From: a virus
Strand: one strand, 5' to 3'
DNA: 44,089 nt
IMG/VR virus record: IMGVR_UViG_3300017694_000005
Coordinates: 1 to 44,089 of that record
The position numbers and the translations under genes are program-made. Below the pieces are notes generated by a model. The model saw nothing but the letters and a program-made list of their open reading frames with translations. It was not told where the DNA came from and ran no database searches. This document shows, in pieces, positions 1 through 32,322 of this stretch. Position 1 is the stretch's first letter. Each line of letters opens with the position of its first letter.

Positions 1-33
1 GACCCGCTGGCCGACGACGACATTCCGTTCTGA
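1..33 (+). CDS. Partial CDS: duplicated 3' end (DPLADDDIPF, stop) of the SSB-like gene 43154-43999.
   Basis: Identical to 43967-43999 and in frame with the stop TGA at 31-33. Confidence 0.85.
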   Translation, partial: DPLADDDIPF

Positions 34-123
34 TGCTCGGCAGTTTTTGCCACTGGTGTCAAGTCCAGTGGCCCACATGGGCGGTATCACGCTGCCCTCG
101 TTGCGGGAGAAAGTAAATAAGCA
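1..123. repeat. Terminal overlap copy 1, identical to 43967-44089. It marks the window as a closed or permuted unit of about 43,966 bp.
   Basis: Base-by-base comparison of both window ends. The repeat starts inside the last 10 codons of the CDS ending at 43999. Confidence 0.95.
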
Positions 124-188
124 AGTTCGCTCAGGTTGCTGCCGCTAGTGCGGCAACCGAGGCTGTCATCGTCTCGGCACTTGAAAAG

Positions 189-1109
189 GTGCCGGGGCGT
201 GTAGCCCATATCGACGGAGATTATCTTTGCTACTACGCAGCAGGCAACGATGACTGTGAACCGGGAACGGCCCGCGCTATCGCGTTGGCTTTCGTACAGA
301 AGGCGCTTGATCGAACAGGCGCAGAGAAAGCCGTCATGCACCTTACTGCTAGCGGCTGTCACAAGGGGGAACGCTATCTCGCCGCTACGGTGAAGCCATA
401 TCAAGGACAACGATCAAGTGATAGGAGACCGAAGAACTGGGCCTACCTCCGTGAGTGGACCCAAGGCTACGAGGGTGACGCCTTCGTCAAGAAAGTATGG
501 GCCAGCCGAGAGGCGGACGATGGCATGGCTGCTTGCGCCGCTTTCGCTGTTCGTAACGGTCGCCTTGACGCAATTGTCACCGCAGACAAGGACATGCGAA
601 TGTTGCCGGGGGTCCACCTTGACTGGAAGGATCACAGCCTGCTGGTCGAAGTGCCCGAAGGAACGTGGGAAGTAGTAGACAAGAACGGCAAGGTCTACGG
701 GGATAAGTGGTTCTGGCTGCAAATGCTGCAAGGCGACGGAGCCGACAACATCCCCGGCCTTGAGTTCTGCTGGATGCAGACCGTCAAGTCTGCGCCAGAG
801 CGCATGATTAAGTGCGGACCCAAGACCGCAGAGAAACTCTTGAGCGGCATTGAAGCCAGCAAGGAGGCGTATGCAGTTGTCATTGACCAGTATCGTCGCT
901 GCTACCGGGGTATTGGCTCTGGCGTGGGTGACGACCGCTTTTGCGAGCAAGCCTGCCTCCTCTGGCTCAGGCAGGACAACAAGGCGGAAGTCACGAGCTT
1001 CGCACAGAAGTGGGGCTACTTGTTCGACGACGCCATGTGGCGGGCAGTTGCCCGTCTCGACGAGCGGGTCAAGAAGGGCCGCGCCGCTATCAACGCTTTG
1101 GGAAGCTGA
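189..1109 (+). CDS. 5'-3' exonuclease / flap endonuclease (FEN, PIN-like plus H3TH).
   Basis: 306-aa ORF with a GTG start. FEN motifs seen: IDGDYLCYY, READDGMAA, TADKDMRMLPG, LQGDGADNIPGL. Confidence 0.85.
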   Translation: MPGRVAHIDGDYLCYYAAGNDDCEPGTARAIALAFVQKALDRTGAEKAVMHLTASGCHKGERYLAATVKPYQGQRSSDRRPKNWAYLREWTQGYEGDAFVKKVWASREADDGMAACAAFAVRNGRLDAIVTADKDMRMLPGVHLDWKDHSLLVEVPEGTWEVVDKNGKVYGDKWFWLQMLQGDGADNIPGLEFCWMQTVKSAPERMIKCGPKTAEKLLSGIEASKEAYAVVIDQYRRCYRGIGSGVGDDRFCEQACLLWLRQDNKAEVTSFAQKWGYLFDDAMWRAVARLDERVKKGRAAINALGS

Positions 1110-4563: not shown

Positions 4564-7047
4564 TTGCTGACACAGATCGAGCTTGAGAAAGAAATGGTTG
4601 ACGGTGGCCGCGCACGTATGGCTGCGATGATGCAGCGGAACGAGGACAAGGACAGCGCCACTAACAACCCGTATGCGTCAGCAGTGTTTCGCCGCTTCGT
4701 CCTCCCAATGGCTGCGGTCATGGAGGACGATATGGCCCACGTAGGGCCGGGACGGTCGAAGCCAGCACTCAAGATGCTCAAGCCGCTTGACACGAAGGTT
4801 GTCGCGTACTTGGCTGTACGGCACTGCCTTAATATATTGATGCAGGAGAAGGACTGCCAAGCCCGCCGAGTAACGCTGGCGCTAGGTAAGGCTGTCTACA
4901 ACGAGGCGCTACTCTCTGTCTTCGAGGACCAAGAGCCGAAGCTGTTCTATACGCTTGCTAACGATCTTGGGCGGCGTATGTCCAAGTCCGAGCGCTATCG
5001 CATGGTGTTCTACAAGGACCAAGCCAAGAAGGCGGGCATTGAGTTGCCGGAATGGGGCATCGACGGCGTAACGAAGGTCGGCGCATACATGGTGTCGGTG
5101 TTGGAGGGGCTGGGCTTTCTCAGCACGCAGCGCGTTCGTATGCCTTCGATCAACGGGTCGAAGACGACCTACCGGGACGAGATACACATTAAGCTCGACG
5201 CAGGTTGCCTTGAGCTTATCGGGAATATCAAGGACTTCATGATTGAAAGCTGCCCGGTCTACCTGCCCTGCGTCGAGCGTCCGCTTGACTGGATCGGCGT
5301 AGGCGACGGCGGCTGGCACACGAACGGCATGAAGCGCTCGCAGCCCTTCGCGATTAAGACGATGGGATCGTGGTCGGAATTGGCTGAGTACGACCTCAGT
5401 GCCCCGCTTAGCGCCATCAACGCGCTGCAATCGGTGCGCTGGCAGGTGAACCGGCAGATGCTCCTAGCGATCAAGGAGATTGCGAAGCACTTCGATACCG
5501 AGGAAATCATCAGCGCCAAGCCAGAAGCTAAGCCCATACGGCCCTACTGGCTCAGCGAGGATATGAAGAAAGAGGACATGAACGAGGATGAGCAAGCCGA
5601 GTTTAAGGGCTGGCGGCGTGCAGCAGCAGAGTGGTTCACTCAGCAAAAGCTGCGCGGCACCAAGTACGGCAGGTTTGGCCAAGCACTTCGCGTTGCAGAG
5701 AAGTTCGAGGAATACCCCGAACTCTACTTTGTCTACTTCGCAGACTTCCGTGGACGACTGTACGTGCAGACAACAGGGATTAGTCCTCAAGGCAGCGATA
5801 TGCAGAAGGCCCTGCTCCGCTTCGCAGAAGGCAAGCCACTAAGGTCGCCAGAGGCGGTCATGTGGTTTAAGGTCAACGGAGCCAACAAGTACGGTTTCGA
5901 CAAGGCCAGCCTGAGCGACCGCGCCGAGTGGGTAGACGAGCGACGTGACATTCTGCTGCGGATTGCATCGGACCCCATCACCTACCGCGACGACTGGATC
6001 GAGGCAGATAGCCCGTTGCAGTTCCTCGCATGGTGCTTCGAGTATAAGCGTTGGATCGACGATCCGTGCAACTTCAAGTCGCACCTGCCGGTTGGCATGG
6101 ACGGTAGCTGCAACGGATTGCAGAACTTCTCCGCAATGCTGCGGGACGAGGTTGGCGGCAAGGCTACTAACCTGCTGCCGGGGCTGCGACCTAATGACAT
6201 CTACCAGATGGTGGCGGACGTTACGACACAGTTGCTGCTCGCTGAGCCTGAGAAGGAAGTGCCCGAAGCTGACGGTACGGAAGAGGGCGACAAGGCCCAT
6301 CGGTACTACAAGAACGAGAACCGCTTCAAGCGCATGTGGCTACTCCACGGCCTGACGCGCGGCCTAGTCAAGCGGTCGGTCATGACCAAGCCCTACGGCT
6401 CGACGCGGTTCTCTTGCGCTGACTTCATCGTGGGCGACTACCTCAAGACTGGTAAGGCACCGGAGTTCGCCAAGGAGGACTATCACCTTGCGGCTCGCTA
6501 CCTCTCTCGCTTTGTATGGGAGGCCATCGGGCAGGTTGTGGTTAAGGCGGACGAGGCCATGACGTGGTTGCAGAAGGCATCTTCGACCATCCTCAAGGAC
6601 GAGGATCATATCCGCTGGGTCACACCGGACGGGTTCCCGGTAATCCAGCGCTACCAGAAGCAGAAGGAGATACGGGTTCACACTAAGCTCTGCGGCTCCG
6701 CTAAGGTGGTCGTTGGCAGCGACACCGAGGATGCCGACAAGAATGCTCACAAGAACGGTGTAGCACCGAACTTTGTGCATAGCTTGGATGCTACCCACAT
6801 GCGGCGTGTAGCGGACAAGGCTCGGTCTGAGGGTATTGTTAGCATGGCCATGATCCATGACGACTTCGGTACTCACGCTGCTGACGCACAGAGGTTCTAC
6901 GAGATCATTCGTGAAACCTTTGTGGACTTGTACGAGAATGCGGACCCGCTTAAGGCTTTCGCTGAACCGTATGGCTTGCCTAACACACCCAAGGCTGGAA
7001 GGCTGGATTTGCGCCTTGTGCTGCAAAGTCCTTATTTCTTCTCCTAA
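4564..7047 (+). CDS. Single-subunit DNA-directed RNA polymerase (T7/phiKMV class).
   Basis: 827 aa with a TTG start 9 nt after GGAG. T7-RNAP-like segments: MDGSCNGLQNFSA, VMTKPYGST, APNFVHSLDATHMR, MIHDDFGTH. Confidence 0.97.
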   Translation: MLTQIELEKEMVDGGRARMAAMMQRNEDKDSATNNPYASAVFRRFVLPMAAVMEDDMAHVGPGRSKPALKMLKPLDTKVVAYLAVRHCLNILMQEKDCQARRVTLALGKAVYNEALLSVFEDQEPKLFYTLANDLGRRMSKSERYRMVFYKDQAKKAGIELPEWGIDGVTKVGAYMVSVLEGLGFLSTQRVRMPSINGSKTTYRDEIHIKLDAGCLELIGNIKDFMIESCPVYLPCVERPLDWIGVGDGGWHTNGMKRSQPFAIKTMGSWSELAEYDLSAPLSAINALQSVRWQVNRQMLLAIKEIAKHFDTEEIISAKPEAKPIRPYWLSEDMKKEDMNEDEQAEFKGWRRAAAEWFTQQKLRGTKYGRFGQALRVAEKFEEYPELYFVYFADFRGRLYVQTTGISPQGSDMQKALLRFAEGKPLRSPEAVMWFKVNGANKYGFDKASLSDRAEWVDERRDILLRIASDPITYRDDWIEADSPLQFLAWCFEYKRWIDDPCNFKSHLPVGMDGSCNGLQNFSAMLRDEVGGKATNLLPGLRPNDIYQMVADVTTQLLLAEPEKEVPEADGTEEGDKAHRYYKNENRFKRMWLLHGLTRGLVKRSVMTKPYGSTRFSCADFIVGDYLKTGKAPEFAKEDYHLAARYLSRFVWEAIGQVVVKADEAMTWLQKASSTILKDEDHIRWVTPDGFPVIQRYQKQKEIRVHTKLCGSAKVVVGSDTEDADKNAHKNGVAPNFVHSLDATHMRRVADKARSEGIVSMAMIHDDFGTHAADAQRFYEIIRETFVDLYENADPLKAFAEPYGLPNTPKAGRLDLRLVLQSPYFFS

Positions 7048-7051
7048 TCCA

Positions 7052-7073
7052 ATTATGGACGCTCTAGAGAAAG
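7052..7073 (+). promoter_or_regulatory. Copy A of the exact 22-mer ATTATGGACGCTCTAGAGAAAG. Candidate phage-RNAP promoter or site-specific recognition site.
   Basis: Identical 22-mers at 7052, 19571 and 31311, all on the + strand. This copy begins 5 nt after the RNAP stop, at the head of the structural module. Confidence 0.5.
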
Positions 7074-7140
7074 TGGTTTATCCTAGCTCGGCCGTATCTA
7101 TATACTGGCTGAGACAGGGTAGCCGCTGGAAGGAATTAAC

Positions 7141-8070: not shown

Positions 8071-9585
8071 ATGCGATTTGCCCCTACCGCGCATGGCCGC
8101 TGGCAACAGCTTGATGGTCAACGGCGAGGGTTTATGGGCCGCTGTGAAAAGTACGCGGCCTACACCTTGCCTAAGATTTGTCTTCCCAGCGGCTTCAAGC
8201 AGAACTCTCAAGAGCTGGATCATGACTTCCAAGCTGTTGGAGCGCAAGCGGTAAACCACCTTAGCAATAAGATGGTCCTATCGCTCTTTGCTCCCTCTTC
8301 CACGTTCTTTCGCTTGGATGCTAGCGAGACGGCTAAGGAAGTCTTTACCGAACTGAATATGTCTCCCGAAGACATTGTGCCTATGCTGGCCAAGACTGAG
8401 CGAGAGGCTGTGGCCCTTCTGGATCGAAAGGCAATGCGCCCCAAGATTTACGAAGCTGTCAAGCATCTTATCGTAACCGGCAACGTCCTCCTTTGCTTGG
8501 AGGAAACCGGCGAGGCCCGAGTTATTGGGCTTAAGCGGTACGCTGTTAGGCGCAGTATGTCTGGCCGTGTGATCGAGCTTATAATTGTGGATACGGTCCT
8601 GATGGATGAGCTTGAAGACGATGTGCAGAGCTACGTCGAAAAAGAGGTCGGATACTCCGAGGACCGCAAGGTCAACCTCTACCGCTGGATCAGGTTTCGC
8701 GATGGCGATTACCACATGACCCAGTGGGTAGACCAAGTGCAGCTTCCCGAAGACTTCAACGGCAAGTGGGCCGAAGAGGATATGCCCTACCGAGTGCTTA
8801 CTTGGGACTTGGCAGACGGCGAAGACTACGGAACAGGACTGGTCGAAGACTACTCTTCTGATTTCGCTGGGCTGTCCGCTTTGTCGCAGTCACAGGTACA
8901 GGGTGCCATTCTTGCTAGCGAGTTCCGTTGGCTCGTCAATCCCGCAGGTCTAACCCGTGTGGAGGACTTTAACGAGACGCCTAACGGCAGCGCTATGCCT
9001 GGCACTGAGGGCGACATTACTCTGATTGAGAGCGGAAAATCCCGCGACCTCAACGTAGTAATTAACATGGTCTCAGAGTACGTGAACCGGATTGGCCGGG
9101 GTTTCCTTCTTGGGAGTTTGCTTGTCCGTCAGGCCGAGCGAGTTACCGCTGAGGAAATTCGGATGACCGCTAACGAACTTGAGACTGCCCTTGGTGGCGG
9201 CTACTCCCGCTTGGCTGTGGACTTTCAAGGCCCTGTCGCTCGTTGGCTGCTCAAGCTGCTTAAGGTTGAGATTGCTGATAAGTTCGAGGTTACTGTTATA
9301 ACAGGGCTGGATGCCTTGTCGAGAACTAGCGACCTTGACGACGCGAAGCTCTGGCTGCAAGACATGGCATTGGCGAACTCCTTGCCCGAACAGATGCAGA
9401 TGCGGATCAAGTGGGATCAGCTATCGTCGATCTTCGCCACTCCCCGGCGCATAGACGTATCGCGCATTTGGAAGACCGATCAGGAAATGGCCGCTGAACA
9501 ACAGGCGGCTCAGGAACAAGAGGCCATGCGAATGGCAGCGCAAGCCGGTGCAGACATTGCCGTGCAAGGCGCAGAAGGAGAATAA
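8071..9585 (+). CDS. Portal (head-tail connector) protein.
   Basis: 504 aa with RBS GTAAGGAG. Size and position (directly before scaffold and capsid) match the T7 gp8 class. Confidence 0.85.
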   Translation: MRFAPTAHGRWQQLDGQRRGFMGRCEKYAAYTLPKICLPSGFKQNSQELDHDFQAVGAQAVNHLSNKMVLSLFAPSSTFFRLDASETAKEVFTELNMSPEDIVPMLAKTEREAVALLDRKAMRPKIYEAVKHLIVTGNVLLCLEETGEARVIGLKRYAVRRSMSGRVIELIIVDTVLMDELEDDVQSYVEKEVGYSEDRKVNLYRWIRFRDGDYHMTQWVDQVQLPEDFNGKWAEEDMPYRVLTWDLADGEDYGTGLVEDYSSDFAGLSALSQSQVQGAILASEFRWLVNPAGLTRVEDFNETPNGSAMPGTEGDITLIESGKSRDLNVVINMVSEYVNRIGRGFLLGSLLVRQAERVTAEEIRMTANELETALGGGYSRLAVDFQGPVARWLLKLLKVEIADKFEVTVITGLDALSRTSDLDDAKLWLQDMALANSLPEQMQMRIKWDQLSSIFATPRRIDVSRIWKTDQEMAAEQQAAQEQEAMRMAAQAGADIAVQGAEGE

Positions 9586-9587: not shown

Positions 9588-10430
9588 ATGGCAGACGAGA
9601 ACACCAGCGCAGCACCAGCCTCTTTCGGCCCCGGTGCTGGCGCACCCGCCGCGCCGCAGCCTAACGCTGCCCCAGCGGCCCCTACTACCGAAGCTCAGGC
9701 CCCAGCAGCCGACACTGTAACCGCCGATGGCGGACAGGCTCCCGCTGGGGATACGCCGCCCACAGATGGCCTAGTAACGCCGCCTGAGCAGGTAACGACC
9801 GTGCTGGAAAGCACTGCCGACGAGGACGGTGCTATTACCTACGAAGCCACGGGCGATCCGGCTTTGGACGTGGCGCTGGAATACCTCGGCAAGCTGGGCT
9901 TTGCTGGGGATGACACGGCAATGGTCCGTGCAGCTACCGGCGACTTCGCTATGCTAGAGGCACAGCTTGCGGCTCTTGGCGACAAGGCGGCGGGCTGGGA
10001 ACGGATGGTCGCGTTGGCGAAATCCGCATACGCTAGCAGCGAGACTAAGCGCACCGAGCAGGTAGCGGCAGTCGAGAAGTCTATCGTGTCGGTTGTCGGC
10101 TCTAAGGAGCAGTGGCAATCTATTGTTACTTGGGCGGCTAAGACAGCCGATCCAGAGGAGAAGGCAGAAATCAATCGCATGATTGATGCTGGACCTATTC
10201 AGGCGCGGGCTGCGGCCACGCTCCTGCTTTCAGCGTACCAGAAGGCTCAGGGCACCAGTGTGCCTCCGAGGTCGGCTGTTCGTGACGCTGCCGGTGGTGT
10301 TCCCGCTTCGGGCAATGGCCCGCTTAATGCGAAGGACTACGCCACCGCTGTCCGCGATCTTAGCAACAAGCTGGGCAATCGCATGGAAGGAAGCCAAGAA
10401 TACGCTGACTTGCAGCGTCGTCTCCGTTAA
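9588..10430 (+). CDS. Capsid assembly (scaffolding) protein.
   Basis: 280 aa. Ala/Pro-rich, acidic N-terminal half and a helical C-terminal half. Located between portal and capsid. Confidence 0.8.
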   Translation: MADENTSAAPASFGPGAGAPAAPQPNAAPAAPTTEAQAPAADTVTADGGQAPAGDTPPTDGLVTPPEQVTTVLESTADEDGAITYEATGDPALDVALEYLGKLGFAGDDTAMVRAATGDFAMLEAQLAALGDKAAGWERMVALAKSAYASSETKRTEQVAAVEKSIVSVVGSKEQWQSIVTWAAKTADPEEKAEINRMIDAGPIQARAAATLLLSAYQKAQGTSVPPRSAVRDAAGGVPASGNGPLNAKDYATAVRDLSNKLGNRMEGSQEYADLQRRLR

Positions 10431-10447: not shown

Positions 10448-11473
10448 ATGCCTCTTTTCGACGCTGGTAATGGTGGTGACGCGATCCCCCTGACGCAGCT
10501 TACTCGCCCCGGTCAGTTTGACCAGACGGGCAACATTAACGCTGCTGCGGTCATCGAGTACCGGGACAGCGTAGAGCACACCATTGAGCGCCGCTCTGTG
10601 CTGGCTCCTTACGTTCCGATCCGTCCGGTGCGCGGCACCAATCAGGTCGGCAACTACGGCTTCGGCAAGTCCGAACTCGGCAAGGTCGTTCCCGGCGAGG
10701 CCCCGCCCGCTACCAAGAACGACATTGGCCGCGTCGTGCTGACCATTGACACGGTGGTTTACACCCGTCACGCTCTGCCGCTGCTCGAAACCTTCCAGAC
10801 CAGCTATGACGCCCGCGTCGAGCTTGGCGTCGAGGATGGTATCGAAATGGCCAAGTTCCACGATCAGGCGTTCTTCATTCAGGCGGCTAAGGCTGCTGCG
10901 ACTACGAACTCGCCGTACTCGTCGGTTGCTGGTAAGCCCGCAGGCTTCAAGGGCGGCTCGCGAGTTACGCTGGCTGCTGCTGGCGACATTGCCGATCCGG
11001 CCAAGATTTATCAGGCTATCAGCGACCTCATGGTTCAGTTCGAGCTTAAGGACGTGCAGCCCGGTCAGGACGGCATCGTGGTTGCAGTGCGTCCCGATGT
11101 GTTCTACGCTCTGATGGGCGCAGAGCAGATCATCAACGGCACTTACATCACCGCTCGCGGCACCAAGGTGGAAGGCGCAATGATCCTCAAGGCTTTCGGT
11201 TGCCCGGTCGTTTCGACCAACAACCTGCCTAGCACGTCGATCACTGGGCACCTTCTGTCCACGACCAACAACGGCAACGCCTACGATGGCGACTTCACCA
11301 AGCTGGCTGCTGTTGCAGTTAGCCCGAAGGCGTTCCTCGCCGGTGAAACCATCCCGCTGGAAAGCGACGTATTCTACGACAAGATTTACAAGTCGTGGTT
11401 CGTTGACAGCCACCGTGCGTTCGGCGTTACGCCTGACCGTACGGAGTACGCTGGCGCTATCTGGTTGCCCTGA
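10448..11473 (+). CDS. Major capsid protein.
   Basis: 341 aa with a good RBS. Synteny: it follows the scaffold gene, and a strong terminator lies downstream. Confidence 0.9.
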   Translation: MPLFDAGNGGDAIPLTQLTRPGQFDQTGNINAAAVIEYRDSVEHTIERRSVLAPYVPIRPVRGTNQVGNYGFGKSELGKVVPGEAPPATKNDIGRVVLTIDTVVYTRHALPLLETFQTSYDARVELGVEDGIEMAKFHDQAFFIQAAKAAATTNSPYSSVAGKPAGFKGGSRVTLAAAGDIADPAKIYQAISDLMVQFELKDVQPGQDGIVVAVRPDVFYALMGAEQIINGTYITARGTKVEGAMILKAFGCPVVSTNNLPSTSITGHLLSTTNNGNAYDGDFTKLAAVAVSPKAFLAGETIPLESDVFYDKIYKSWFVDSHRAFGVTPDRTEYAGAIWLP

Positions 11474-11883
11474 TGCCTAATGCTCGCTTGAAAGGCGAGA
11501 GCGAGGATGCGGCCCGTATTCGGTATAATGCTGAAATGCGGGCCTATCGCGCTCAACGCAAGGCACAAGGTCGTCCACTCAAGGAAGGCACCTATGACTA
11601 CGCAAGTTGTCGTGAGGCCAGCCTAAAGCGGAAGTATGGCATTACTCCCGAGCAAGCCCAAGCTCTGTACGACCAGCAGGAGGGCAAGTGCGCTATATGC
11701 GACAAGCCCGTCTCGCTTGACAATAGAGACAAGCCGAAGTCGGAACATAGTGCTATTGACCACTGCCACAAGACAGGCGAGGTTAGAGGCATCTTATGCT
11801 TCCACTGCAACCAAGGGATTGGGAAGTTCTATGACGACCCGGAGCGCCTGCGCAAAGCCGCGGCCTACGTTGATCGCCCGTAA
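11473..11883 (+). CDS. HNH / Endonuclease VII-family nuclease (free-standing, homing-endonuclease-like).
   Basis: 136 aa. Motifs: YGITPEQAQALYDQQEGKCAIC ... IDHCHKTGEVRGILCFHCNQGIGKF. TGATG overlap with the capsid stop. Confidence 0.85.
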   Translation: MPNARLKGESEDAARIRYNAEMRAYRAQRKAQGRPLKEGTYDYASCREASLKRKYGITPEQAQALYDQQEGKCAICDKPVSLDNRDKPKSEHSAIDHCHKTGEVRGILCFHCNQGIGKFYDDPERLRKAAAYVDRP

Positions 11884-11894: not shown

Positions 11895-11930
11895 GCCCCA
11901 CTCATGCTCAGGCGTGGGTGGGGCTTTTTT
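11895..11930 (+). terminator. Rho-independent-type terminator after the capsid/HNH unit.
   Basis: The GCCCCAC (11895-11901) / GTGGGGC (11918-11924) stem is followed by TTTTTT (11925-11930). Confidence 0.7.
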
Positions 11931-12566: not shown

Positions 12567-15146
12567 ATGAGCAAGGTTAGCGGAAGCTACGAAAGCGTGG
12601 TGCGCGGCGTATCGGAACAGAACGCTCAGTCGCGCCGCAGCGGGCAGCATGAAGCCCAAGTCAATATGATTAGCGACCCTGTGCGCGGCTTAGCTCGCCG
12701 CCACGGGTCTATCATGCAAGACGAAAAAGTGATCGCCGCAGAGGGGTTCGACGAGTTTGTTGGCCTTACTGCCAAGACGCGAGTGTCTCCCTTCTTTGTA
12801 GGCGGTCGCGAGTACGACGCTATTTTCAGGCCCTCGCCTGCCACGGGAAGCCCCGCTGCGCGAGCCAGCCTTATTCAGTGCTTCGACAAAGAGGCACGCA
12901 AATTTGTTCCGGTGGCCTTAGATAACAGCCCCTTGGTAGACCAGCTAGTAACAGGCGGCATATCCGCCATCGCTAACGTGGGCAGGTTCCTTTACGTCGC
13001 AGGCAAGACTGTCGTGCCTACCGTACAGCAGACTGCTAGGTGGGACAATTTCCTCAATCAGCGTATGCTGGCCGTTTGGATACGAGGCGGGGCGTACTCG
13101 CGGGAGTTCTCGATCAAGCTGGTGCGCGCGAACGGAACCACCATTGTCGGCAAGTATAAGACCAAAGCGTCTTCCTACCCGGAGTTGTTGGACACCAGCG
13201 ATATTGTGATCGGGACTGGCGATAACGCTATGAACGATTACACAAAGGCGATCAACGACCGAACCAATCTCTTCAACAGCAAGTCTACTGCATGGATCGG
13301 AGAGGCTGCTGCTGATATTACGCCGCAGAACATTGCGGCTAAGTTAGTGGCCGCCCTCGTTCAGGCTGGGGCTAGCTCTGTTGACGTGGCCCAGCGAGAC
13401 GGTTATGTCGTCGTCAATGGCGACTACGTTGAGATAGAGGCAAACGATGGCGGTGATGACAGCCTTGTCAGGTCCGTGGGCAACACCATCAAGAACTTGG
13501 ATATGGTGTCGTCTCGGCACTTCGCAGGAAAGGTGGTGAAGGTCGAACCGGAAAAGAACGCTGGCGATCCCTTCTACCTACTGGCTGTTGCCAAGGATGC
13601 AGTTAGCACGGGCTGGACCGAAGTGGTGTGGCGAGAGACCGCGGGCTTTGAAATGCGGCCAACGTCTGTATTCGCCTTCGGCACGGTGCATAACGGCACC
13701 TTCTACCTTGCGGGTTCGGCTGCTGGCTTGCAGGCCCTATCCGGTATAGACGTGCCTAACTATGAGCCGAACAAGGTGGGAGACGCAGGCTCTGCGCCGC
13801 TGCCAAACTTCTTCGGAAAGCGCATTGACTACATGGGCGTATTCCAAGATCGCCTTATTATCGGTGCGGGCGCTACGCTGATGTTTTCTAGGTCCGGCGA
13901 CTACCTTAACTGGTTTCGCAAGTCTGTGGCGACCATCAACGACGATGACCCTTGGGAAGGCTACGCGCTCGGCTCTGAGGATGACACCATTGTGCATGGT
14001 GCTATCTACGACAAGGGGCTACTGCTGTACGGAGAACGCTACCAATACTCCATAACGGGGCGTCAGGCGTTTACTCCGCAGTCGGCTAACATTTCTATTG
14101 CATCGTCCTACAAGGAGGCAGTGGAAGCAGCCCCGAAGGCTTCCGGCAACTACGTGTTCTATGCCAAGTATAGTGGGGCAGTGGGCAAGGAAATCACAAG
14201 CCTGCATCAGGTGCAGCCCGGTGCCGTGTCCGATGTTTCTGACAGCTACCCGGCTAGCCAACAGCTTGACACGTACCTTAGCGGCATCCCAGTAGAACTG
14301 CTAACTCTGGAAGCTCCGAATATCGTGCTTCTGCGGACGACCACTTCCCGAACCCGAGTGTTTACCTACAGCTACATGGACAATCCTAACAGCACCGAAC
14401 GTCTGTTCGATAGCTGGTCCTGCTGGACGTGGAACGAGGGCGTAGGCTACATCGTAGGCATGAGCGACCACAAGAGCGACATACTCGTCTACATGCTCCG
14501 AAAGAGCGTGGGAGCAGACGGTAAGGCTACGGTTTGGTACGCCGCAGAGAAGTTCGTTCGAGACGCCGACCTGTCAGACTACCCGTATTTGGACAGCTTG
14601 CGGCCTCTCAGCGCCTTCCTGAACAATTCAGGTGCTCTCAAAACTACTCTGTCTGACAACGCTCCCCTAGCTTTCGGCTTCGGGCGCGGAGGGGCCAGAA
14701 GTTTCCTTGGAAGCTCGCTGGCGAATATCGGACAGTTCCTGTCTTGGTATCCCGAAGCCAATTCGGAAAGCTGGGTGGGCTATCAGTATCCGTCCTATGT
14801 TACTCCGACTAACCCCTTCATCAGGGATCGGAATGGGCAGGCGGTGCTGGGCGGCAGGCTTACGCTAGGCAGGGTAAAGGTTGCAGTTACGAACACAGGT
14901 GGGATGACCTGCGAAGTGACAGCACGCGGCCATACTCGGCAGTCCTTGAACTTCACGGGACGAGTGCTTGGCGCTAATGAGAACCTCGTTGGAAGACAGC
15001 CGATCACTGACGCTAACTTGTCCGCCGTTATCGGTGGGGAGGTTAGGGAATGCAGCTACACACTAGCCGCAGTTAAATGGCTTCCGCTAACGATTAATGC
15101 TATAGAGTGGCAGGGTCAGTCCTTCATGAACACAAGGAGAGTTTAA
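12567..15146 (+). CDS. Tail tubular protein B (gp12-like).
   Basis: 859 aa with RBS GTAAGGAG. Call is based on size and synteny. Confidence 0.8.
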   Translation: MSKVSGSYESVVRGVSEQNAQSRRSGQHEAQVNMISDPVRGLARRHGSIMQDEKVIAAEGFDEFVGLTAKTRVSPFFVGGREYDAIFRPSPATGSPAARASLIQCFDKEARKFVPVALDNSPLVDQLVTGGISAIANVGRFLYVAGKTVVPTVQQTARWDNFLNQRMLAVWIRGGAYSREFSIKLVRANGTTIVGKYKTKASSYPELLDTSDIVIGTGDNAMNDYTKAINDRTNLFNSKSTAWIGEAAADITPQNIAAKLVAALVQAGASSVDVAQRDGYVVVNGDYVEIEANDGGDDSLVRSVGNTIKNLDMVSSRHFAGKVVKVEPEKNAGDPFYLLAVAKDAVSTGWTEVVWRETAGFEMRPTSVFAFGTVHNGTFYLAGSAAGLQALSGIDVPNYEPNKVGDAGSAPLPNFFGKRIDYMGVFQDRLIIGAGATLMFSRSGDYLNWFRKSVATINDDDPWEGYALGSEDDTIVHGAIYDKGLLLYGERYQYSITGRQAFTPQSANISIASSYKEAVEAAPKASGNYVFYAKYSGAVGKEITSLHQVQPGAVSDVSDSYPASQQLDTYLSGIPVELLTLEAPNIVLLRTTTSRTRVFTYSYMDNPNSTERLFDSWSCWTWNEGVGYIVGMSDHKSDILVYMLRKSVGADGKATVWYAAEKFVRDADLSDYPYLDSLRPLSAFLNNSGALKTTLSDNAPLAFGFGRGGARSFLGSSLANIGQFLSWYPEANSESWVGYQYPSYVTPTNPFIRDRNGQAVLGGRLTLGRVKVAVTNTGGMTCEVTARGHTRQSLNFTGRVLGANENLVGRQPITDANLSAVIGGEVRECSYTLAAVKWLPLTINAIEWQGQSFMNTRRV

Positions 15147-15973
15147 TGGCCGAAGGAGGCAAAGGCGGGCTTAGCCCCGGAGGCATTTTCAATTTCCTCG
15201 TCGCCACTGATACGGCGGCGGGGAATGCGAAGCTGGCTCGTAGCCGGAAGAAAATGCAGCTTCAACAGAACAAGCAGAGCGCAGCGGAAGCTGGCCTTGC
15301 CCGTTGGAGCCAGTCGCTCGGTAATCAAAAGCTGATGAACCGGGCTGGCGAAAACCTAGCTACCTTGACCGAGAACATCGGCAGGGTGCAGGATGCCCAG
15401 ACGCTAAATAAGGTCCAGCGAGACCTTGCCACCGCCGAACAGCTAGGAGCCGCGACTGCGGCCTTTGCTGCTGCGGGCATGGGCGGGTCTAGCGTGGAGG
15501 CGTTCAAGAGGACGCTAGTGACCACGCGGGCCATAGAGAGCGAGCTACAGAGCCGTAGCAATAAGTCTGGCAATTATCTGGCCCAGCAGCAGCGCAGCCA
15601 AGTTATTCCCGATGCGGTGGACAGCCTCAACCGGGACATAATTACGGCCCGCATAGACTTCACGGACTATGGGCCGAGCAAAGGACCGTCTCTTTTGGGC
15701 AATCTGGCGGCGCTGGGGATGGCTGCGGGGGCTGCGGCGGCTGGGGCACCCGACATCGGCAACGCGATCCTAAAGAGCCGCACAGCCGGTTTGCAGAACC
15801 GACAGGGCCAAGGCCAGCAGGCTGCGGCGACGTTTAACTCCGCACTCAGCGACTTCGGTGATGGCGTAAAGCAGCTTAAGGACACCTTCCGGTTTAGCGG
15901 GAGCAGCCCCAAGTTGCGCCCAGTAGACACGAGTAATTGGGGTGCAGACCTCACTAGCTTTATGATTAGGTAG
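15146..15973 (+). CDS. Internal virion protein A (gp14-like).
   Basis: ATG in a TAATG overlap, 8 nt after AAGGAGA. Contains a Gly/Ala-rich hydrophobic segment (LLGNLAALGMAAGAAAAGAP). Synteny supports the call. Confidence 0.65.
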   Translation: MAEGGKGGLSPGGIFNFLVATDTAAGNAKLARSRKKMQLQQNKQSAAEAGLARWSQSLGNQKLMNRAGENLATLTENIGRVQDAQTLNKVQRDLATAEQLGAATAAFAAAGMGGSSVEAFKRTLVTTRAIESELQSRSNKSGNYLAQQQRSQVIPDAVDSLNRDIITARIDFTDYGPSKGPSLLGNLAALGMAAGAAAAGAPDIGNAILKSRTAGLQNRQGQGQQAAATFNSALSDFGDGVKQLKDTFRFSGSSPKLRPVDTSNWGADLTSFMIR

Positions 15974-15983: not shown

Positions 15984-18254
15984 ATGGCCGACGGACGGCA
16001 AACTTTTCAGTTTAATGCAAGTGCGCCGGTTCAGGGCCAAGTGCAGGGCGGGGGCGGCTATCGCTCCTCCTCTGTGCAAGGTGGCGGCGTCATCGCCGAG
16101 AACCGCAACCCGGAAGTCGTGGGCGGTGTAGCGTACGCTTCGGGACTAGGCGACTATTTCGACAATCTCATGAAGCCTGCTATGGAGCGGGAAGCACGAG
16201 CACGTTTTGCCAAGGGCATGACGGACCAGATGTATGCAGCAGCAGGCGAGGAAATCCGCGCCGGTGACGGGCTGCTTACCAAGATTTTTGGCCCTACTGA
16301 CTACGAGCAGGGCGCAATGTTCTACGAGAGCCAGAACCGTATCGCTGATGCGGTAGGCGGCTGGACGGCTCGAATGGACGAGCTTAAGCGTATGCCCAAG
16401 GAGCAGGTAGCCCAAGAGTGGGCCAAGGTGATCGAGGGCGTGCAAACGGGCGATCCCCTGCTTGACGATGTAGTGACGCAGGATATGCTCAAGCAGACGG
16501 CCCCGTCCTTACAGGCGGTAGCCAAGGCTAGCTTTGCCTTTGGGCAGGAGCAAGTCGTAGCGCAGCAGCAGACATTCTTCGCAGGCAGCGCCAAGACCTT
16601 TCAGGAGCAGGGCAGGCAGTTCTTCGAGACCGCCGATCCCAACGATCCGGCTATGGCTCAGGGCTATCAGGCGGCGCGTGCTAGCTTCTTGCAGGGCTGG
16701 ATGAAGCCTCCGGGTCAGACCGACGACAGCTACCGCAAGTCCGTACTAGCCGGGTTCGCCAAGCTAGTCCGAGACGGCAATGGGCACGGTGCCACGGCGC
16801 TAATGCAGAGTGGCCTGCTCAATGCCTTGGACGCAGAAGACCGGGCCAAGCTGGAAGACCAGTACGACCGTTTCGGCAGCAAGGCAGTAGGCGAGGGCGT
16901 TATCGAGTTCATGCCGCAGGTAGACCAGCTACAGGGCGAGCTTGAGTTCGGAAAGCTGACGGGCGAGGAAGCAGTTGCTAGAATGCGGTCATTGAATGAC
17001 CTTATCAAGAAGCGGACAGGCTTCGACAGCGACTACTTCGATGCCAGCGATCAAGAGAGCGCCTTGAAGGGTGTGTGGTCGGCTAGGCGCTCTGCGCTAG
17101 AGAAGCAGGAGGAGCGACAGTTCCAATTGCAGCGTGACGAGGCCAATGCTGAGAGGCAGGAGGAGATTGAAGTACGCAAGGAAGAACGCAAGGTCGCCGC
17201 CGCTCGGGCAGCATTTGCTTCATCCAATCCCGCCGTTGCTATCGCGGCAGGGGCGGCAGACAAAGACGCCGTGCAGGCAATGGTCTACGATGCGTACAAC
17301 AAGAACGACTTTGGCGGTATGCTCCGGTCCTACAAGACTGGACTTATCAATCCCGACGTTAAGAGCGCAATCCAGAACACGGTAGCCGCCTCTGCTAACA
17401 ACGGGTATAGCCCGGAGTTTAATGGCTTGCACGCCAAGTTCGAGGGAATGCTTAAAGCAAACCCAGCAATGGCCAAGGAATACTTTGGCCCGCTGTTCCC
17501 GAACATGGTGCGGTATCGCCAACTCTTGACTAACCAGACACCGCAGGTTGCCTTCACTACGGCTTTCGGAGACAACGTAACGTATGCGGCGGATAGTGCC
17601 GAGTTGGCCGGAGGGCGTAAGGCTGTGTCGGGCTGGGTTGCTAAGCAGCAGCCGGGCTTCTTCCGCAGTATGCTTGGCGCTCCTACTCTCAATGCTTCTG
17701 CTCAGCAGTCCTTGTCTAATCTGATCGGCCGAGAGGTCGCACAGGATAGCAAGTTTGCTGGCGGCGATCTGAGCCAAGACACCCTGATTAAGGGAGCCTA
17801 TCAGCGGGCCATTAACAACGGCAGCTACGAGGCATACGGCGCTATTGGCTGGTCTAACGGCAAGCCTACGACACCGCTATACCGCTCTATGGGTATGCAG
17901 CAACAGGAAGCCGCCGAAGTTATCGAGGACATGATCGACAAGCGCCTAAAGGCTGCGGGTCATCCCGAAGGTGCGAGCGGCGCAGAATACAATATCACCC
18001 GTGGCCGATATAACGGCAAGGACACGCTTATCGTCGTCCCTGTGGGCGAAGAGGGCATGGACAGCAGCAAGGCAGCGGTAATCACCGTTGACGAGCTTGC
18101 CGCCGCTGGGCGGACGTTCAGGGCTGGAAAGGCTAAGGCGAATGCGCCATCGAAGCCTTCCCGCACGGGCAGCGGCCTTCTCGGCTACGGCGGAGCGGGT
18201 GGCGACTTCAATACGCAGAACAACCAGCGAGGCTACGGCACGCGCAACAAGTAA
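15984..18254 (+). CDS. Internal virion protein B (gp15-like).
   Basis: 756 aa. Call is based on synteny and size. Confidence 0.7.
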   Translation: MADGRQTFQFNASAPVQGQVQGGGGYRSSSVQGGGVIAENRNPEVVGGVAYASGLGDYFDNLMKPAMEREARARFAKGMTDQMYAAAGEEIRAGDGLLTKIFGPTDYEQGAMFYESQNRIADAVGGWTARMDELKRMPKEQVAQEWAKVIEGVQTGDPLLDDVVTQDMLKQTAPSLQAVAKASFAFGQEQVVAQQQTFFAGSAKTFQEQGRQFFETADPNDPAMAQGYQAARASFLQGWMKPPGQTDDSYRKSVLAGFAKLVRDGNGHGATALMQSGLLNALDAEDRAKLEDQYDRFGSKAVGEGVIEFMPQVDQLQGELEFGKLTGEEAVARMRSLNDLIKKRTGFDSDYFDASDQESALKGVWSARRSALEKQEERQFQLQRDEANAERQEEIEVRKEERKVAAARAAFASSNPAVAIAAGAADKDAVQAMVYDAYNKNDFGGMLRSYKTGLINPDVKSAIQNTVAASANNGYSPEFNGLHAKFEGMLKANPAMAKEYFGPLFPNMVRYRQLLTNQTPQVAFTTAFGDNVTYAADSAELAGGRKAVSGWVAKQQPGFFRSMLGAPTLNASAQQSLSNLIGREVAQDSKFAGGDLSQDTLIKGAYQRAINNGSYEAYGAIGWSNGKPTTPLYRSMGMQQQEAAEVIEDMIDKRLKAAGHPEGASGAEYNITRGRYNGKDTLIVVPVGEEGMDSSKAAVITVDELAAAGRTFRAGKAKANAPSKPSRTGSGLLGYGGAGGDFNTQNNQRGYGTRNK

Positions 18255-18265: not shown

Positions 18266-21200
18266 ATGGCAGACCGCAGGGCTTCGAGCCGTCCCGGTGA
18301 TAGCTACCTTGACGATGGGTACTACCGCCCGATTGAACAGAAGTTTGAGCAGAAGTACGGGTTGCCTGTTGGGCTGCTCGGCCGTATCCGCAAAGACGGA
18401 GAAAAGACCAATCGTGGCGTAGTCTCGTCGGCAGGGGCGCGGTCTGTCTATCAGATCATTCCGCCCACCGCAAAGCTATTCCAGAATAAGTACGGCGTTA
18501 ATGCCTATTCGAGTGACGAGGCTGCTGCTCAGGTAGCAGCCCTTCACCTTAAGGAAAGCTGGGACCGCAGCGATGGCAACATCGAGCGGACAGTGCGGGA
18601 GTATCACGGCGGCCCTAACCCTAAGAACTGGGGCCGCATCAACGACGCCTATGCGCGCCGCGTCACTGGCAAGGCAACCGCCCGGTCCATGACGGTGGAG
18701 GCGCGTGGGACGACTGCGCTGGCTCCTAGCGTCGATCTGGCTTCCGTGGACGTATCGGCCCTGCGTAACGTCGCACCCTCTGATATTGGCTCCCGCAAGC
18801 CTCTCGGGCCTAGGCCGATCACGGAGCGAGACGTGGCCCCGAAGCCGACCGCAGCCGGTTCCATCCTCGCCCCTTATGTCGGCAAGGACGCGACCCCCGG
18901 CAGCGCAGAAGGGACCGCCACAGAGCAACGAGAAGCCTACACGCAGTCTGTGCAGGCCGAGACTGCCCGCGCTGGCGTGACCTTCGGAGAACGGCTTGAG
19001 GCTAGCTGGGACCGCAACTGGATCACGTCTATGGTAGGTCGAGCACTCGAAAGCGACCTCGCACCGGCAGACCCGGAATGGAGCAAGGAGTACGTCCGCA
19101 ACATTGACGCTTACGAGAAGTTTGCAGAGACGCAGGAGGAGCTAGACGAGCTTCGCGGCTCGACGGCTCAGAACAGCCGAGAGGACTTCTACGCTACGGT
19201 TGAGCGTATCCAAAAGCGCCGCGAAACGCAGAAAGTTGTGGACAGCAATGGCACTGGATGGGCATACGACCTCACCGCGTCCTTGACCGACCCTACAGCT
19301 TGGGTTGCCACGGCTGGCGTCAGCAAGGGAGTAAACGCGGTATCGGCTTTTGCTAAGGGCGTCAAGGCTGCTTCGGCTGCTCCGACGCTCGGAACGATGG
19401 CTGCCGAGGGCGCGATAGCCAACCTCGGCTTTACTGGCATCTTGGACGCATCGGGAGAGAAGCAGAGCGTAGGCGACTACGTTATGTCTGGCGCGCTCGG
19501 TGTGGGCATTGGCGCGGCGCTTCACGGCGTTACGACACGGCTCGGAAAGCCTGATGCTAGCGACAGGGCTATTATGGACGCTCTAGAGAAAGAGCGACAG
19601 ACTGCTCTCACAGAGATCAAAGAGGCTGCACAGGCACGAGTTGGCGCTAATGCTGACGACGCGCAGATTGAGCAGGCTATGCAAGCAGAGGCGGCAGATC
19701 GGGCTACACAGGCCCTACGTATGTCCGTCTCGGAGCGCGCCGATAACGACCGGCTAATTCCGGCTGACGAAGAACTGTGGCGCACTACGCCTGAGCAAGC
19801 TGCTATGCTAGCCCAATCTGGCCCGCTTGGGCGGATCAGCGACCCTACCACCCGCCGTATCGGCGCGGAGCTACAGGTGCGGGCCGAAGAGATAACGGAA
19901 CGCGCTCGCGCGGCTGGCGATCTGGATAAGGGCCTTGAGGGCCGTGTATTGCAGATGGCTGGGCAAGAGAGTGACGCGCTTACGATGTTGCGGTCTAACA
20001 ACCCGATGTTGCAGGCAACCGCTATTCAGCTTCTCGAAAGCACTACCGGAGCAGGCGGGCGTAAGCCTTCTGCTGCCCTTACGCTAGTGATGCGCCAGCG
20101 CGCCTATATGGAGCACATGGTAAATTACGATCAGGCGTTTGACCTTTGGCGGCAAGCTGAGGGTAAAGGCAAGCTGGCAGCGATGCTCTCCCCGGATCAC
20201 CGGGCTGAGTTTGACCGGCTGGTATTCCGTGAAGTAGAGGCACGGGGCGGCTTTGGCGAGCTTTCCAATAACGGGGCTGTCCGCAGGGCGGCTGACGCTT
20301 GGGAAGCGGGCATGGATAAGATGCGGCGTGAAATGCAGGAGATTGGTACGCTAGGCGCTGAGCGTTTGGGCAATACCAGTGTCGGCTATATGTCGCACCA
20401 GATCGACGCGCAGAAGTTGCGCAAGCTGACTGACGCCCAACGGAGCAATGTCGAGAATATCTTCGCGCAGCAGTTCCGGCAGCTCAACGAGTATAGCTAC
20501 ATCAACGAGGAAGGCGAGAAGGTCGTTAAGGCTTTCGATGCTAAGTTCTCTAAGGAGCTAGCCAAGCGGTATATCTACGAGGCTATTGAGCGGAGCAAGG
20601 GTGCGACTTTCGTACCAGCTAACCTGCAAAGCCCGGAAGCGGTGGATATTATCAGTGACGCCATCAAGACCATGCAAGGTATTGCGCCTGCGGACAAAGA
20701 GGCCCTGCTGGGCAAGTTCTCGCGGGGCGGTGCTAAGTTCACCAAGAAGCGCCTTCGCTTCGATCTGACCCAAGATATTGGCGAAGGTCGGCAGCTTGGC
20801 GACTTGTTCAATCAAGATCTGCTTACGCTCTATCGCAACTACTCTCGCCGCGTGGCGGGTGAAGTGGCGCTTGGGCAGTACGGAGTGCTTGGGAAGCAGA
20901 CGCTCGATATTATGCGCACGGTAGCTTCGGTTACGGGCGCAACGGATAAAGAGCTTGCGGCTTTTGAGCGAGTGTCTTCGGAGTTCTTGAACCAGCCTTG
21001 GCGTCCCGGCCAGCATGACAATGCTTTCCGCACGCTGCGCTCGATTACCTCGTCGTCCATGCTGGGCGGTATGGGCATTACGCAGTTGGGCGAACTCGGT
21101 AACGCATTGCCCGTAGTAGGTGTCAAGGGCGTACTTGCAGTCAGTAAGGAACTAATCCCCGGCCTAGGTCGCCTCCGTAAGGAGATCGGCATGTGGAAGG

Positions 21201-22246: not shown

Positions 22247-22288
22247 GCCCACCCCGCTGATGCTTCGGCTCAAGGGTGGGCTTTTCTT
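22247..22288 (+). terminator. Rho-independent-type terminator after the internal virion protein genes.
   Basis: The GCCCACCC (22247-54) / GGGTGGGC (22274-81) stem is followed by TTTTCTT. Confidence 0.7.
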
Positions 22289-24244: not shown

Positions 24245-24577
24245 GTGTCGGCTACTGAGAAGAAGCTGGGAGCATTGCACGAGAAGGTTGCGGAGGTCTT
24301 GATCGACGCACTGGATGGTGAGGAGCTTCCAGCTTACCAAGACCCTGAGAGCGGGGAGGTTATGGAAGCAAAGCGTATCCCGCCCTCGGCGGCGATCATA
24401 GCGGCTGCCACTAAGTTCCTCAAGGATAATGAGATCACCTGCGTCAAGGATACCGGCAACGCCCTTGGCGAGCTGGAAGCTAAGATGCAGGAGCGACGGG
24501 CGCGTCGTGCTAAGGCTAGTGTGGTGGACCTCGACGAGGCTCGCCGTGACGCGCAGTTCATGATCGGAGGTAAATAA
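24245..24577 (+). CDS. terS: Terminase small subunit.
   Basis: 110 aa with a GTG start after AGGAGA. It lies directly upstream of, and is coupled to, the large terminase gene. Confidence 0.7.
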   Translation: MSATEKKLGALHEKVAEVLIDALDGEELPAYQDPESGEVMEAKRIPPSAAIIAAATKFLKDNEITCVKDTGNALGELEAKMQERRARRAKASVVDLDEARRDAQFMIGGK

Positions 24578-30966: not shown

Positions 30967-31252
30967 TAGGTAAGGTCGGGTGATCTTCGGGTCAACCCGG
31001 CCATCCTCCCGCTTGCGCAGGAGTAGCCCTTCACGGCCTGAATTTGATACCGGTATGCGAAGGGGCACCTCAGACCAGAAGTGCGCGTAAATTCCCCCGT
31101 ACGGCCCTCGTGTTGCCTGCCAAAGCATAGGGGCTGATCGGTTAGGCTCTTGATGACATGCAAGGTAGGGCCGGTATTGCCTGATGTCAACACGCTTTCT
31201 CGAATTTATTTGAGCGTAAGGGCGGGGCGTATCTGTCTTTCTTTTCGTGTTG

Positions 31253-31269
31253 TTGGCACGGTCCTTGCT
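31253..31269 (+). promoter_or_regulatory. Sequence matching the sigma-54 -24/-12 promoter consensus (TTGGCACGgtccTTGCT).
   Basis: Every specified position of YTGGCACGrNNNTTGCW is matched. Function is unproven. Confidence 0.3.
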
Positions 31270-31310
31270 ACGCGCAACGCGGGTATCTGTTTGGCTTTGG
31301 GCCTAGTCCT

Positions 31311-31332
31311 ATTATGGACGCTCTAGAGAAAG
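31311..31332 (+). promoter_or_regulatory. Copy B of the exact 22-mer, within the ORF-free region.
   Basis: Identical to 7052-7073 and 19571-19592. It shares extra flanking similarity with copy A (TCC upstream; TATCTATAT and GAGAC(A)GGG downstream). Confidence 0.5.
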
Positions 31333-31452
31333 GGCGCACGGCTAACCGGGCTGGCGATCCCATATCTATATTCACCGGCGGAGACGGGTTGCACCCTGAT
31401 AGGCTGAGCGGCGCTAGCTGGCATGGTCGGCGGCGATCACTGGCCCGGTGAA

Positions 31453-31492
31453 CCTATGGGCCGTCCTATGGCTTGCTATGGCGATCCTATGG
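31453..31492 (+). repeat. Array of four phased heptamer repeats, CCTATGG / GCTATGG.
   Basis: Copies start at 31453, 31465, 31475 and 31486 (spacing 12, 10, 11 nt). A fifth isolated CCTATGG lies at 32138. Confidence 0.8.
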
Positions 31493-32221: not shown

Positions 32222-32267
32222 TAGTGCGGCAATGGCCTAACGGTCCTTGATTAAGATTGCCGCACTA
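32222..32267. repeat. Perfect 12-bp inverted repeat TAGTGCGGCAAT / ATTGCCGCACTA with a 22-nt spacer.
   Basis: Arms at 32222-32233 and 32256-32267, 56 nt upstream of the first early ORF. Confidence 0.8.
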
Positions 32268-32322
32268 ATGATAAGGGCAGGCGATAGTGCCTGTCTTTAT
32301 GATTAGACAAACTGGGTGACTT

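Follow-up and report, generated by a model that had tools for sequence, protein, structure and literature searches.

In the phiKMV-like phage KP34, the strong promoter T(A/G)ATGTTACAGGAGTA was established by in vitro transcription and 5'-rapid amplification of cDNA ends, and it is present in three copies, at nt 475 (S2), 22197 (S1) and 33721; a weak promoter, 22144-22163, is stated to lie inside the RNA polymerase (RNAP) gene (Lu et al. 2019, PMC6834552). We read the three strong-promoter positions as a site near the left end of the genome, a site beside the RNAP gene and a site in the structural region ~11.5 kb further on. In LUZ19, ONT-cappable-seq identified four 20-bp promoters sharing GgtTATGTCACacACAnnGG, of which two directly follow the RNAP gene and the structural and early regions have one each, and these promoter sites are kept in 15 other Phikmvvirus species (PMC10914365). 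Here we have analysed the virus record IMGVR_UViG_3300017694_000005 over its whole length of 44,089 nt (the window), in which the 22-mer ATTATGGACGCTCTAGAGAAAG occurs in three exact copies, A (7052-7073), B (19571-19592) and C (31311-31332), all on the + strand. We consider it very probable that this 22-mer is the promoter of the single-subunit RNAP encoded by the phage itself (4564-7047) and that it spans about -17 to +5. This reading is supported, at the level of sequence, by the position, orientation and number of the copies, by a syntenic conservation with concerted change, by the co-variation of the motif with the specificity loop of the RNAP and by the match to the KP34 promoters. Initiation itself, the exact +1 and the role of each copy are what we infer from it.

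The recurrence of the 22-mer is beyond chance, as 0 copies were expected from 100 dinucleotide-preserving shuffles. A search of both strands of the window with ≤3 mismatches gave no further copy, and the 16-nt core returned the same three matches against 0.33 expected. We observed that 4 nt separate the end of the RNAP stop codon (7047) from copy A, whose first base is the fifth past the stop; copy A heads the late/structural block, 70 nt ahead of the first late open reading frame (ORF), the ATG of which is at 7142. Copy C is in the non-coding left end, ~80 nt past the predicted boundary of a terminal repeat, and by analogy may be the equivalent of T7 phiOL and KP34 S2. Copies A and C also have seven of the nine bases directly upstream in common (29/31 over CCTA[A/G]TCC[A/T] plus the 22-mer), where copy B differs. 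Of the three copies, only B is in coding sequence: it lies in frame within ORF 18266-22240 and encodes I-M-D-A-L-E-K in a segment that appears as a variable linker when this internal virion protein is aligned with 14 orthologues. T7 and Syn5/KP34-weak promoters can overlap coding sequence, and therefore the location of copy B inside an ORF does not disqualify it as a promoter.

A small ORF starting from the ATG inside the motif was considered and rejected; this ATG is upstream of the predicted +1, and the frames following A and C are unrelated. There is also a 14-nt exact match, AACCGGGCTGGCGA, between 15338-15351 (inside ORF 15107-15973) and 31344-31357, just 3' of copy C, which is probably due to chance.

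The exact 22-mer had no match in IMG/VR. Searching viral contigs with the internal virion protein as the query gave no confirmed locus, and one metagenome scan returned only the contig described below, along with a short fragment. A scan with the 14-mer ATTATGGACGCTCT was non-specific, with at least 118 unrelated matches, and its loci (L005-L122) were disregarded. The closest relative is one contig of IMG/VR and JGI (L002/L125/L199, hereafter L125), whose RNAP is 79% identical to that of the window. It has its own variant of the motif at two of the sites: ATTATGGACGCTCTCGCAGGG (ATTATGGACGCTCTCGCAGGGAAG) five bases after the RNAP stop codon, and ATAATGGACGCTCTCGCAGGG at the orthologous codon position of its 1323-amino-acid (aa) internal virion protein. 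The window and L125 agree over the first 14 bases of the motif and disagree in the last eight (CTAGAGAAAG versus CTCGCAGGG), the change being identical at sites A and B. In the protein, the segment reads AIMDAL-EK in the window and AIMDAL-AG in L125; in 13 further orthologues it is unconserved, and none of them has the motif there. As the linker is not conserved, the identity of the copies is held at the DNA level and not by protein constraint. Another relative, L001 (RNAP 78% identical), has TTTTGCCACTGCTCTAGAAAAGG after its RNAP stop codon.

These comparisons bear on whether the 22-mer could be a functionless repeat, that is, a recent triplication of a fragment by recombination or an error of assembly. 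The perfect identity of the three copies and the fact that the window is a single metagenomic assembly would fit such an origin. However, a related motif, with concerted differences, stands at the same two sites of an assembly that was obtained independently from a different sample; cultured phages with finished genomes show the three-site architecture again, and copy B remains in frame in an intact ORF of 1324 aa. We therefore give this explanation a close to negligible probability.

The comparison with L125 is equally informative about the 8-bp palindrome CTCTAGAG inside the 22-mer. If read by a dimer, the palindrome would make the 22-mer a binding site for another phage or host protein, for which an operator bound by a repressor, a site for a replication initiator or a terminase/pac-related factor and a homing/HNH endonuclease target are the candidates; signals for packaging and replication are located towards the genome end, and the position of copy C close to it is also in line with such a site. 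But the palindrome is lost in L125 (CTCTCGCAGGG; GCTCTCGCAGGG; corresponding bases CTCTCGCA) and is not part of the clade consensus, which is asymmetric. Moreover, with all the copies strictly in one orientation, a symmetric site is disfavoured; none of the copies has an HNH or homing cassette next to it; and promoter function is the simpler account of why the positions match those of validated promoters. Hence, a dimer-read site is highly unlikely, and the same holds for the listed candidates taken jointly.

We then consider the wider group. The survey covered 70 IMG/VR loci encoding tail tube B with 10-kb flanks, in which the RNAP, internal virion protein and tail fibre genes were placed by tblastn; repeats were sought in each locus with the 220 nt around the RNAP stop codon, and the end of the RNAP gene was captured in 53 loci (RNAP 33-79% identical). 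In about 45 of these 53 loci, a motif of 18-25 nt that is particular to the genome lies 0-100 nt 3' of the RNAP stop codon and recurs elsewhere in the locus. The recurrence is mostly on the same strand and in the spacer between the internal virion protein and tail fibre genes, and it is inverted in a few distant loci; a Xanthomonas/Xylella-like branch has an additional copy 3' of the capsid gene. In Percy, the copies are at 279 (78 nt past the annotated 201-bp terminal repeat), 20864 (20 nt past the RNAP stop codon) and 36482 (upstream of the tail fibre gene). Other left-end copies, shortly after the terminal repeat, are found in Lullwater (315), KSC (~229-247), Quill (Quill_5.2; ~310-326) and Cd1 (~314-335). 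Only in the window and L125 is the second copy inside an ORF, most relatives having it in the internal virion protein/tail fibre spacer; the corresponding spacer of the window (22247-22288) has a terminator-like hairpin and a T-run where the relatives keep the promoter-like motif. A preliminary description of the window had named the alignment of related genomes as a check on syntenic conservation, which the two variants in L125 and the genome-specific motifs after the RNAP gene now show.

In distant relatives (Xanthomonas/Xylella-like and others), we also noticed two inverted promoter-like motifs just after the RNAP gene, which form a long near-perfect hairpin (Table 1). By comparison with the antisense LUZ19 promoter P001, this inverted pair may act as a combined terminator and antisense promoter.

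Few copies on one strand only could alternatively indicate a site-specific single-strand nick site, of the type in phiKMV-like, tf and T5 virion DNA; a phage nickase would then recognise the motif and cut one strand at each copy. Four localized nicks per genome have been documented for Andromeda and for the phiKMV-like phages of Pseudomonas, and the window encodes two Endonuclease VII-family proteins. However, the phiKMV nick consensus CGACNNNNNCCTACTCCGG (taken from a preprint) has six matches with 2-3 mismatches in the window against 4.6 expected, and none of them is at a copy of the 22-mer. In phiKMV/LUZ19, the nick consensus and the promoter motif mapped by transcription start sites are different sequences; as the two are distinct in phiKMV-type phages, a few-copy single-strand motif does not imply a nick, and the nick site is left with no positive support. 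Such a site would also have no reason to be just 5' of late operons, co-oriented in dozens of relatives, and to track the RNAP loop. We regard it as having a very small probability.

Having weighed these alternatives, we return to the 22-mer as a promoter and to its register. In ungapped comparisons with the 23-nt consensus promoters of T7, T3, SP6 and K11, the best offset of the 22-mer was 0 against -17 to +5 of each of them, with identities of 11/22 (T7), 11/22 (T3), 13/22 (SP6) and 13/22 (K11); it follows that the 22-mer spans -17 to +5 and that the predicted starts are G7069, G19588 and G31328, the G of GAAAG. The spacing seen in KP34 (AC+7) would move each predicted start by one base. The architecture is T7-like, with an AT-rich upstream part, GAC at -11 to -9 and G at the predicted +1, and the 3' 16 nt are identical to the T7 core at 11 of the 16 positions.

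The motifs of the alphaproteobacterial-phage clade fall into one ungapped register on an invariant AC: a T-rich run, (G/A)(G/T/A)(T)AC, six variable bases, (G/A)C and then A at the start. This register, too, places GAC at -11 to -9, as in T7. In it, the window reads ..ttatggACgctctaga up to the start and GAAAG from there, and Aquamicrobium phage P14 reads ..ttatggtACgctctagc followed by ACAGG.

In T7 RNAP, the base-reading residues are R746, N748, R756 and Q758 (PMC11880802). From the alignment to T7 RNAP, the equivalents in the RNAP of the window are R704, H706, K714 and V716, and we observed that these four loop residues track the core of the motif across the relatives. The loop RRFR goes with the core gatACc (L146, L178, L182, L145), RNKR with g(g/t)ACc (L130, Scott), and both RNKA (L129, L135) and RNKK (Percy) with ggtACa. 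The loops RHKV / RNKV / RRKV go with ACg (window, L125, P14), QERV with gccACt (L001) and QRMK with gtcACc (L141, L142). Correlations link base -8 to the residue at the Q758 position and base -11 to that at the R756 position, as expected from the contacts in T7.

Several points weigh against the promoter assignment. The co-variation of loop and core is confounded by shared ancestry and comprises ~10 independent lineages; it is only suggestive because related phages inherit both traits by descent. The window and L125 differ at the N748 equivalent (H versus N) and yet have the same bases from -17 to -4, and the -1/+1 bases are A and G in the window instead of the C and A usual in the clade. The likeness to known consensus sequences is modest (T7-type, 11-13/22; KP34, 8/18; LUZ19, 7/19). 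Copy B, being in an ORF and not intergenic, is unusual among the surveyed relatives; its transcript would carry 2.7 kb of untranslated sequence before the tail fibre gene, and a terminator-like hairpin stands between the two.

The observations of the preliminary description, namely the three identical + strand copies and their improbability by chance, the location of copy A behind the RNAP stop codon at the head of the structural genes, the 11/16 match to the T7 core, the AT-rich upstream part and the 8-bp palindrome, were all reproduced, with unchanged coordinates. Its leading idea, a phage-RNAP promoter, gained from the synteny, the concerted change, the loop co-variation and the positional match to KP34. 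The alternatives that it had listed are not supported: the palindrome that pointed to a dimeric-protein operator is missing from the version of the closest relative, a target of an HNH/Endonuclease VII enzyme finds no HNH or homing cassette beside any copy, and a nick site is countered by a phiKMV consensus that is not above chance and by the difference between nick and promoter motifs in phiKMV-type phages.

If the 22-mer is the promoter, transcription of this phage might proceed as follows. The host polymerase would read the early and middle genes, with the RNAP gene as the last, from the non-coding region of the left end, and the newly made phage RNAP would then fire from copies A, B and C. 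From copy A, transcription would run through the small late genes and those for portal, scaffold and capsid as far as the T7 Tphi-like terminator at ~11.9 kb, and copy B would boost the late genes farther along (tail fibre, terminase, lysis). Late in infection, copy C would drive renewed transcription of the left end, and it may have a part in replication or packaging.

The surroundings of copies A and C have a further feature in common. TATCTATAT is found downstream of A and C, but not of B, with C(C/T)GGC(G/T)GAGAC after it. Two related signals, GTATCTGTCTTTCTTT at 31229 and GTATCTGTTTGGCTTT at 31283, stand a short way upstream of copy C. In T7, the class II pause signal is 5'-ATCTGTT-3' on the non-template strand, at the concatemer junction; it is orientation dependent, and any base change in it abolishes its function with T7 RNAP (preprint). 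The ATCTGTT at 31285 is exactly this T7 class II core, with ATCTGTC (31231) and ATCTATA (7096, 31364) as variants. TATCTRT occurs five times in the window, always on the + strand, and four of the five are within 100 nt of A or C; the total count equals that expected by chance.

Similar elements are present in the cultured relatives. In Percy, KSC, Lullwater and Quill, ATCTATCT is no more than 2 nt away from where the terminal repeat has its annotated right end. In these four phages and in Cd1, CATCTATT..CCGGAGTA comes after the left-end motif, and in Percy and Cd1 CATCTATT also comes after the post-RNAP motif. The promoter-like motifs of the left end and behind the RNAP gene have ATCT(A/G)T elements 10-60 nt downstream of them (Table 1). 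This distribution suggests that the ATCT(A/G)T elements are the class-II-like signals of the clade. On this reading, the repeat boundary of the window would be at ~31231-31240, ~80 nt before copy C, and 31229-31298 is predicted to be the right boundary of the direct terminal repeat, or concatemer junction. The ~1-kb non-coding left end (31333-32320) is also rich in short repeats. It presumably holds the early promoters for the host polymerase; an E. coli-type sigma-70 scan of the left end gave nothing convincing, as is expected for an alphaproteobacterial host.

A broader idea can be built on these arrangements. Besides being a promoter, the 22-mer would belong to a conserved left-end module, which would consist of a class-II-like ATCT(A/G)TCT repeat boundary, ~80 nt, a phiOL-like promoter and a second signal, ATCTAT..CCGGAG(A/T)A; the pair of promoter and signal would have a duplicate behind the RNAP gene. 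A coupling of RNAP pausing to the processing of concatemers or the initiation of replication would then be ancestral across Autographiviridae, including the alphaproteobacterial phiKMV-like phages, and one promoter copy would have been transplanted into a coding linker and kept identical by concerted evolution. We hold this proposal as a whole to be tentative and rather doubtful. To our knowledge, pausing coupled to these processes is known only for T7.

The predicted transcript from copy A would begin with a stable 5'-leader hairpin (Table 1), which has ATCTATAT (with the conserved ATCTAT) in its apical loop and is followed by the ribosome-binding site GGAAGGAA and the ATG at 7142. The leaders of L125 (4953-5010, z=-3.0) and L001 (~2720-2765, z=-2.9) have a similar fold built from different stem sequences, and the leader of copy C is unfolded (z=+0.5). 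An RNA structure common to the leaders of A and C was therefore rejected; their consensus fold is weak (-2.75 kcal/mol) and the copy-C leader is unstructured. The copy-A hairpin may act as a 5' stem-loop that stabilises the mRNA, or else as a site of processing.

The first 123 bases of the window are exactly the same as bases 43967-44089. From this exact end overlap, the record is a circularised assembly of a genome of ~43,966 bp, which is circularly permuted in the window; the overlap is an artefact of circular assembly and not a biological terminal repeat, and the physical genome ends are predicted near 31.0-31.24 kb. Judging from gene content and order, the phage is a phiKMV-like podophage of the Autographiviridae, and all its genes are on the + strand. 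The RNAP ORF matches phrog_414 (E=1e-282), T7 RNAP in PDB (E=1e-116) and the Pfam families RPOL_N and RNA_pol. In an exact-protein look-up, the sole match was the window's own metagenomic contig, ENA ERZ27250572 k141_242650. The nearest cultured relatives, with RNAPs 54-57% identical, are the Caulobacter phages KSC, Percy, Lullwater and Cd1, the Sphingomonas phage Scott and Brevundimonas phages; a megablast of the window against cultured phages gave weak capsid matches only, and Rfam has no family within the window.

The terminator following the capsid and Endonuclease VII genes is proposed to partition the transcription unit of copy A; Percy also has an annotated terminator 3' of its capsid gene. 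Of the two Endonuclease VII-family genes, one (1163-1555) is at the usual site in the DNA-metabolism block, and the other (11473-11883) is inserted between the capsid and tail-tube-A genes, with the Tphi-like terminator 3' of it. The extra copy could be a free-standing homing-type nuclease.

Table 1. Coordinates of the features discussed, in the window unless a relative is named
Feature	Coordinates	Strand	Remarks
Predicted promoter copy A, -17 to +5	7052-7073	+	predicted start G7069 (+/-1)
Predicted promoter copy B	19571-19592	+	predicted start G19588 (+/-1)
Predicted promoter copy C	31311-31332	+	predicted start G31328 (+/-1)
TATCTAT	7095-7101	+	28 nt downstream of copy-A predicted start
TATCTAT, then CCGGCGGAGAC	31363-31369	+	37 nt downstream of copy-C predicted start
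Two GTATCTGT(C/T)TT signals	31229-31244, 31283-31298	+	just upstream of copy C
Stable 5'-leader hairpin of predicted copy-A transcript	7072-7127	+	minimum free energy -30.4 kcal/mol, z=-4.4
Single-subunit T7-type RNAP	4564-7047 (including stop)	+	final gene of DNA-metabolism block
Portal	8071-9585	+	
Scaffold	9588-10430	+	
Capsid	10448-11473	+	
Strong intrinsic terminator after capsid/Endonuclease VII genes	11895-11930	+	T7 Tphi equivalent; 13-bp stem, then TTTTTT
Tail tube B	12567-15146	+	
Internal virion protein 1	15984-18254	+	
Internal virion protein 2, lytic domain, gp16-like, 1324 aa	18266-22240	+	hosts copy B; phrog_342, E=4e-191
Terminator-like hairpin and T-run	22247-22288	+	internal virion protein/tail fibre spacer
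Tail fibre	22304-24232	+	
Large terminase	24577-26361	+	
Non-coding stretch	~31.0-32.3 kb		left end of related linear genomes
Left-end short repeat GTCCCTAGCA	31680, 31705		
Left-end short repeat CCTATGG			
Left-end short repeat TGGCCTAA(T/C)GGTCC	31695, 32233		
Terminal repeat, Percy	1-201		ATCTAT at 201
Terminal repeat, KSC	1-190		ATCTAT at 190
Terminal repeat, Lullwater	1-196		ATCTAT at 198
Terminal repeat, Quill	1-196		ATCTAT at 198
ATCT(A/G)T, L126 (Percy)	201, 308, 20890		
ATCT(A/G)T, L196	198, 391		
ATCT(A/G)T, L202	190, 266		
ATCT(A/G)T, L203	198, 391		
ATCT(A/G)T, L204	248, 361		
Inverted-motif hairpin, L162	4703-4758		
Inverted-motif hairpin, L161	4759-4808		
Inverted-motif hairpin, L180	4720-4772		
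Inverted-motif hairpin, L151	4745-4804		
Inverted-motif hairpin, L186	4741-4797		
Inverted-motif hairpin, L194	691-754		

The class of element is well known, and this is an ordinary element in the expected places. The motif strings and the promoter consensus of this clade were not found in the searchable literature, and genome mining by PhageProm could not predict promoters for this branch, for example in Percy (PMC11880802). The value of the 22-mer is that of a candidate promoter/RNAP pair from a poorly sampled phiKMV-like branch infecting Alphaproteobacteria; orthogonal pairs of single-subunit RNAP and promoter are useful for in vitro transcription and in synthetic biology. The register, taken with the correspondence of loop and core, amounts to testable specificity rules over about ten lineages, and for a phage that is uncultured, the motif settles the likely map of transcription as well as the likely physical ends of the genome. 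The ORF-embedded promoter copy and the class-II-like signals are of additional interest.

We compared the predicted promoter with the known systems. In KP34, as in the window, the RNAP gene ends the DNA-metabolism block and there are exactly three sense-strand copies. The distances are also comparable, 12.5 kb in the window versus 11.5 kb in KP34 from A to B, and 19.7 versus 21.7 kb from the left end to A. Both motifs begin with T(A/T)ATG, continue to ..AC and have the start 7-8 nt after this AC. KP34 differs in that only 8/18 bases are identical in the best register, that an unrelated weak extra promoter is inside its RNAP gene, and that its promoter is experimentally proven whereas that of the window is predicted; the structural-region copy of the window, moreover, is inside an ORF. 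LUZ19/phiKMV resemble the window broadly in promoter layout and in the syntenic conservation of the motif, and TTATG and (T)CAC/GAC are common to both; however, the copies behind the RNAP gene of LUZ19 are a tandem pair and its early copy is antisense, where the window has a single copy and a sense left-end copy.

The T7 class III, phiOL and phi17 promoters (TAATACGACTCACTATAGGGAGA) are like the window motif in being ~23 bp long, from -17 to +6, AT-rich at -17 to -13, with GAC at -11 to -9 and a purine at the start. The layout of T7 is also similar, with a left-end promoter after the terminal repeat (phiOL), a tail-fibre promoter (phi17) and a hairpin terminator after the capsid gene. On the other hand, T7 has ~17 promoters and an early RNAP gene, only 11/22 bases are identical, and TATA is present at -4 to -1 in T7 where the window has TAGA. 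The motifs of P14, Percy, Lullwater and Cd1 have both register and architecture in common with the window, and that of P14, TTATGGTACGCTCTAGC followed by ACAGG at the start, is the sequence nearest to the window's TTATGG-ACGCTCTAGA followed by GAAAG. What sets the window apart from these four, together with L125, is a motif that is one base shorter (GGAC versus GGTAC) and a second copy that is inside an ORF.

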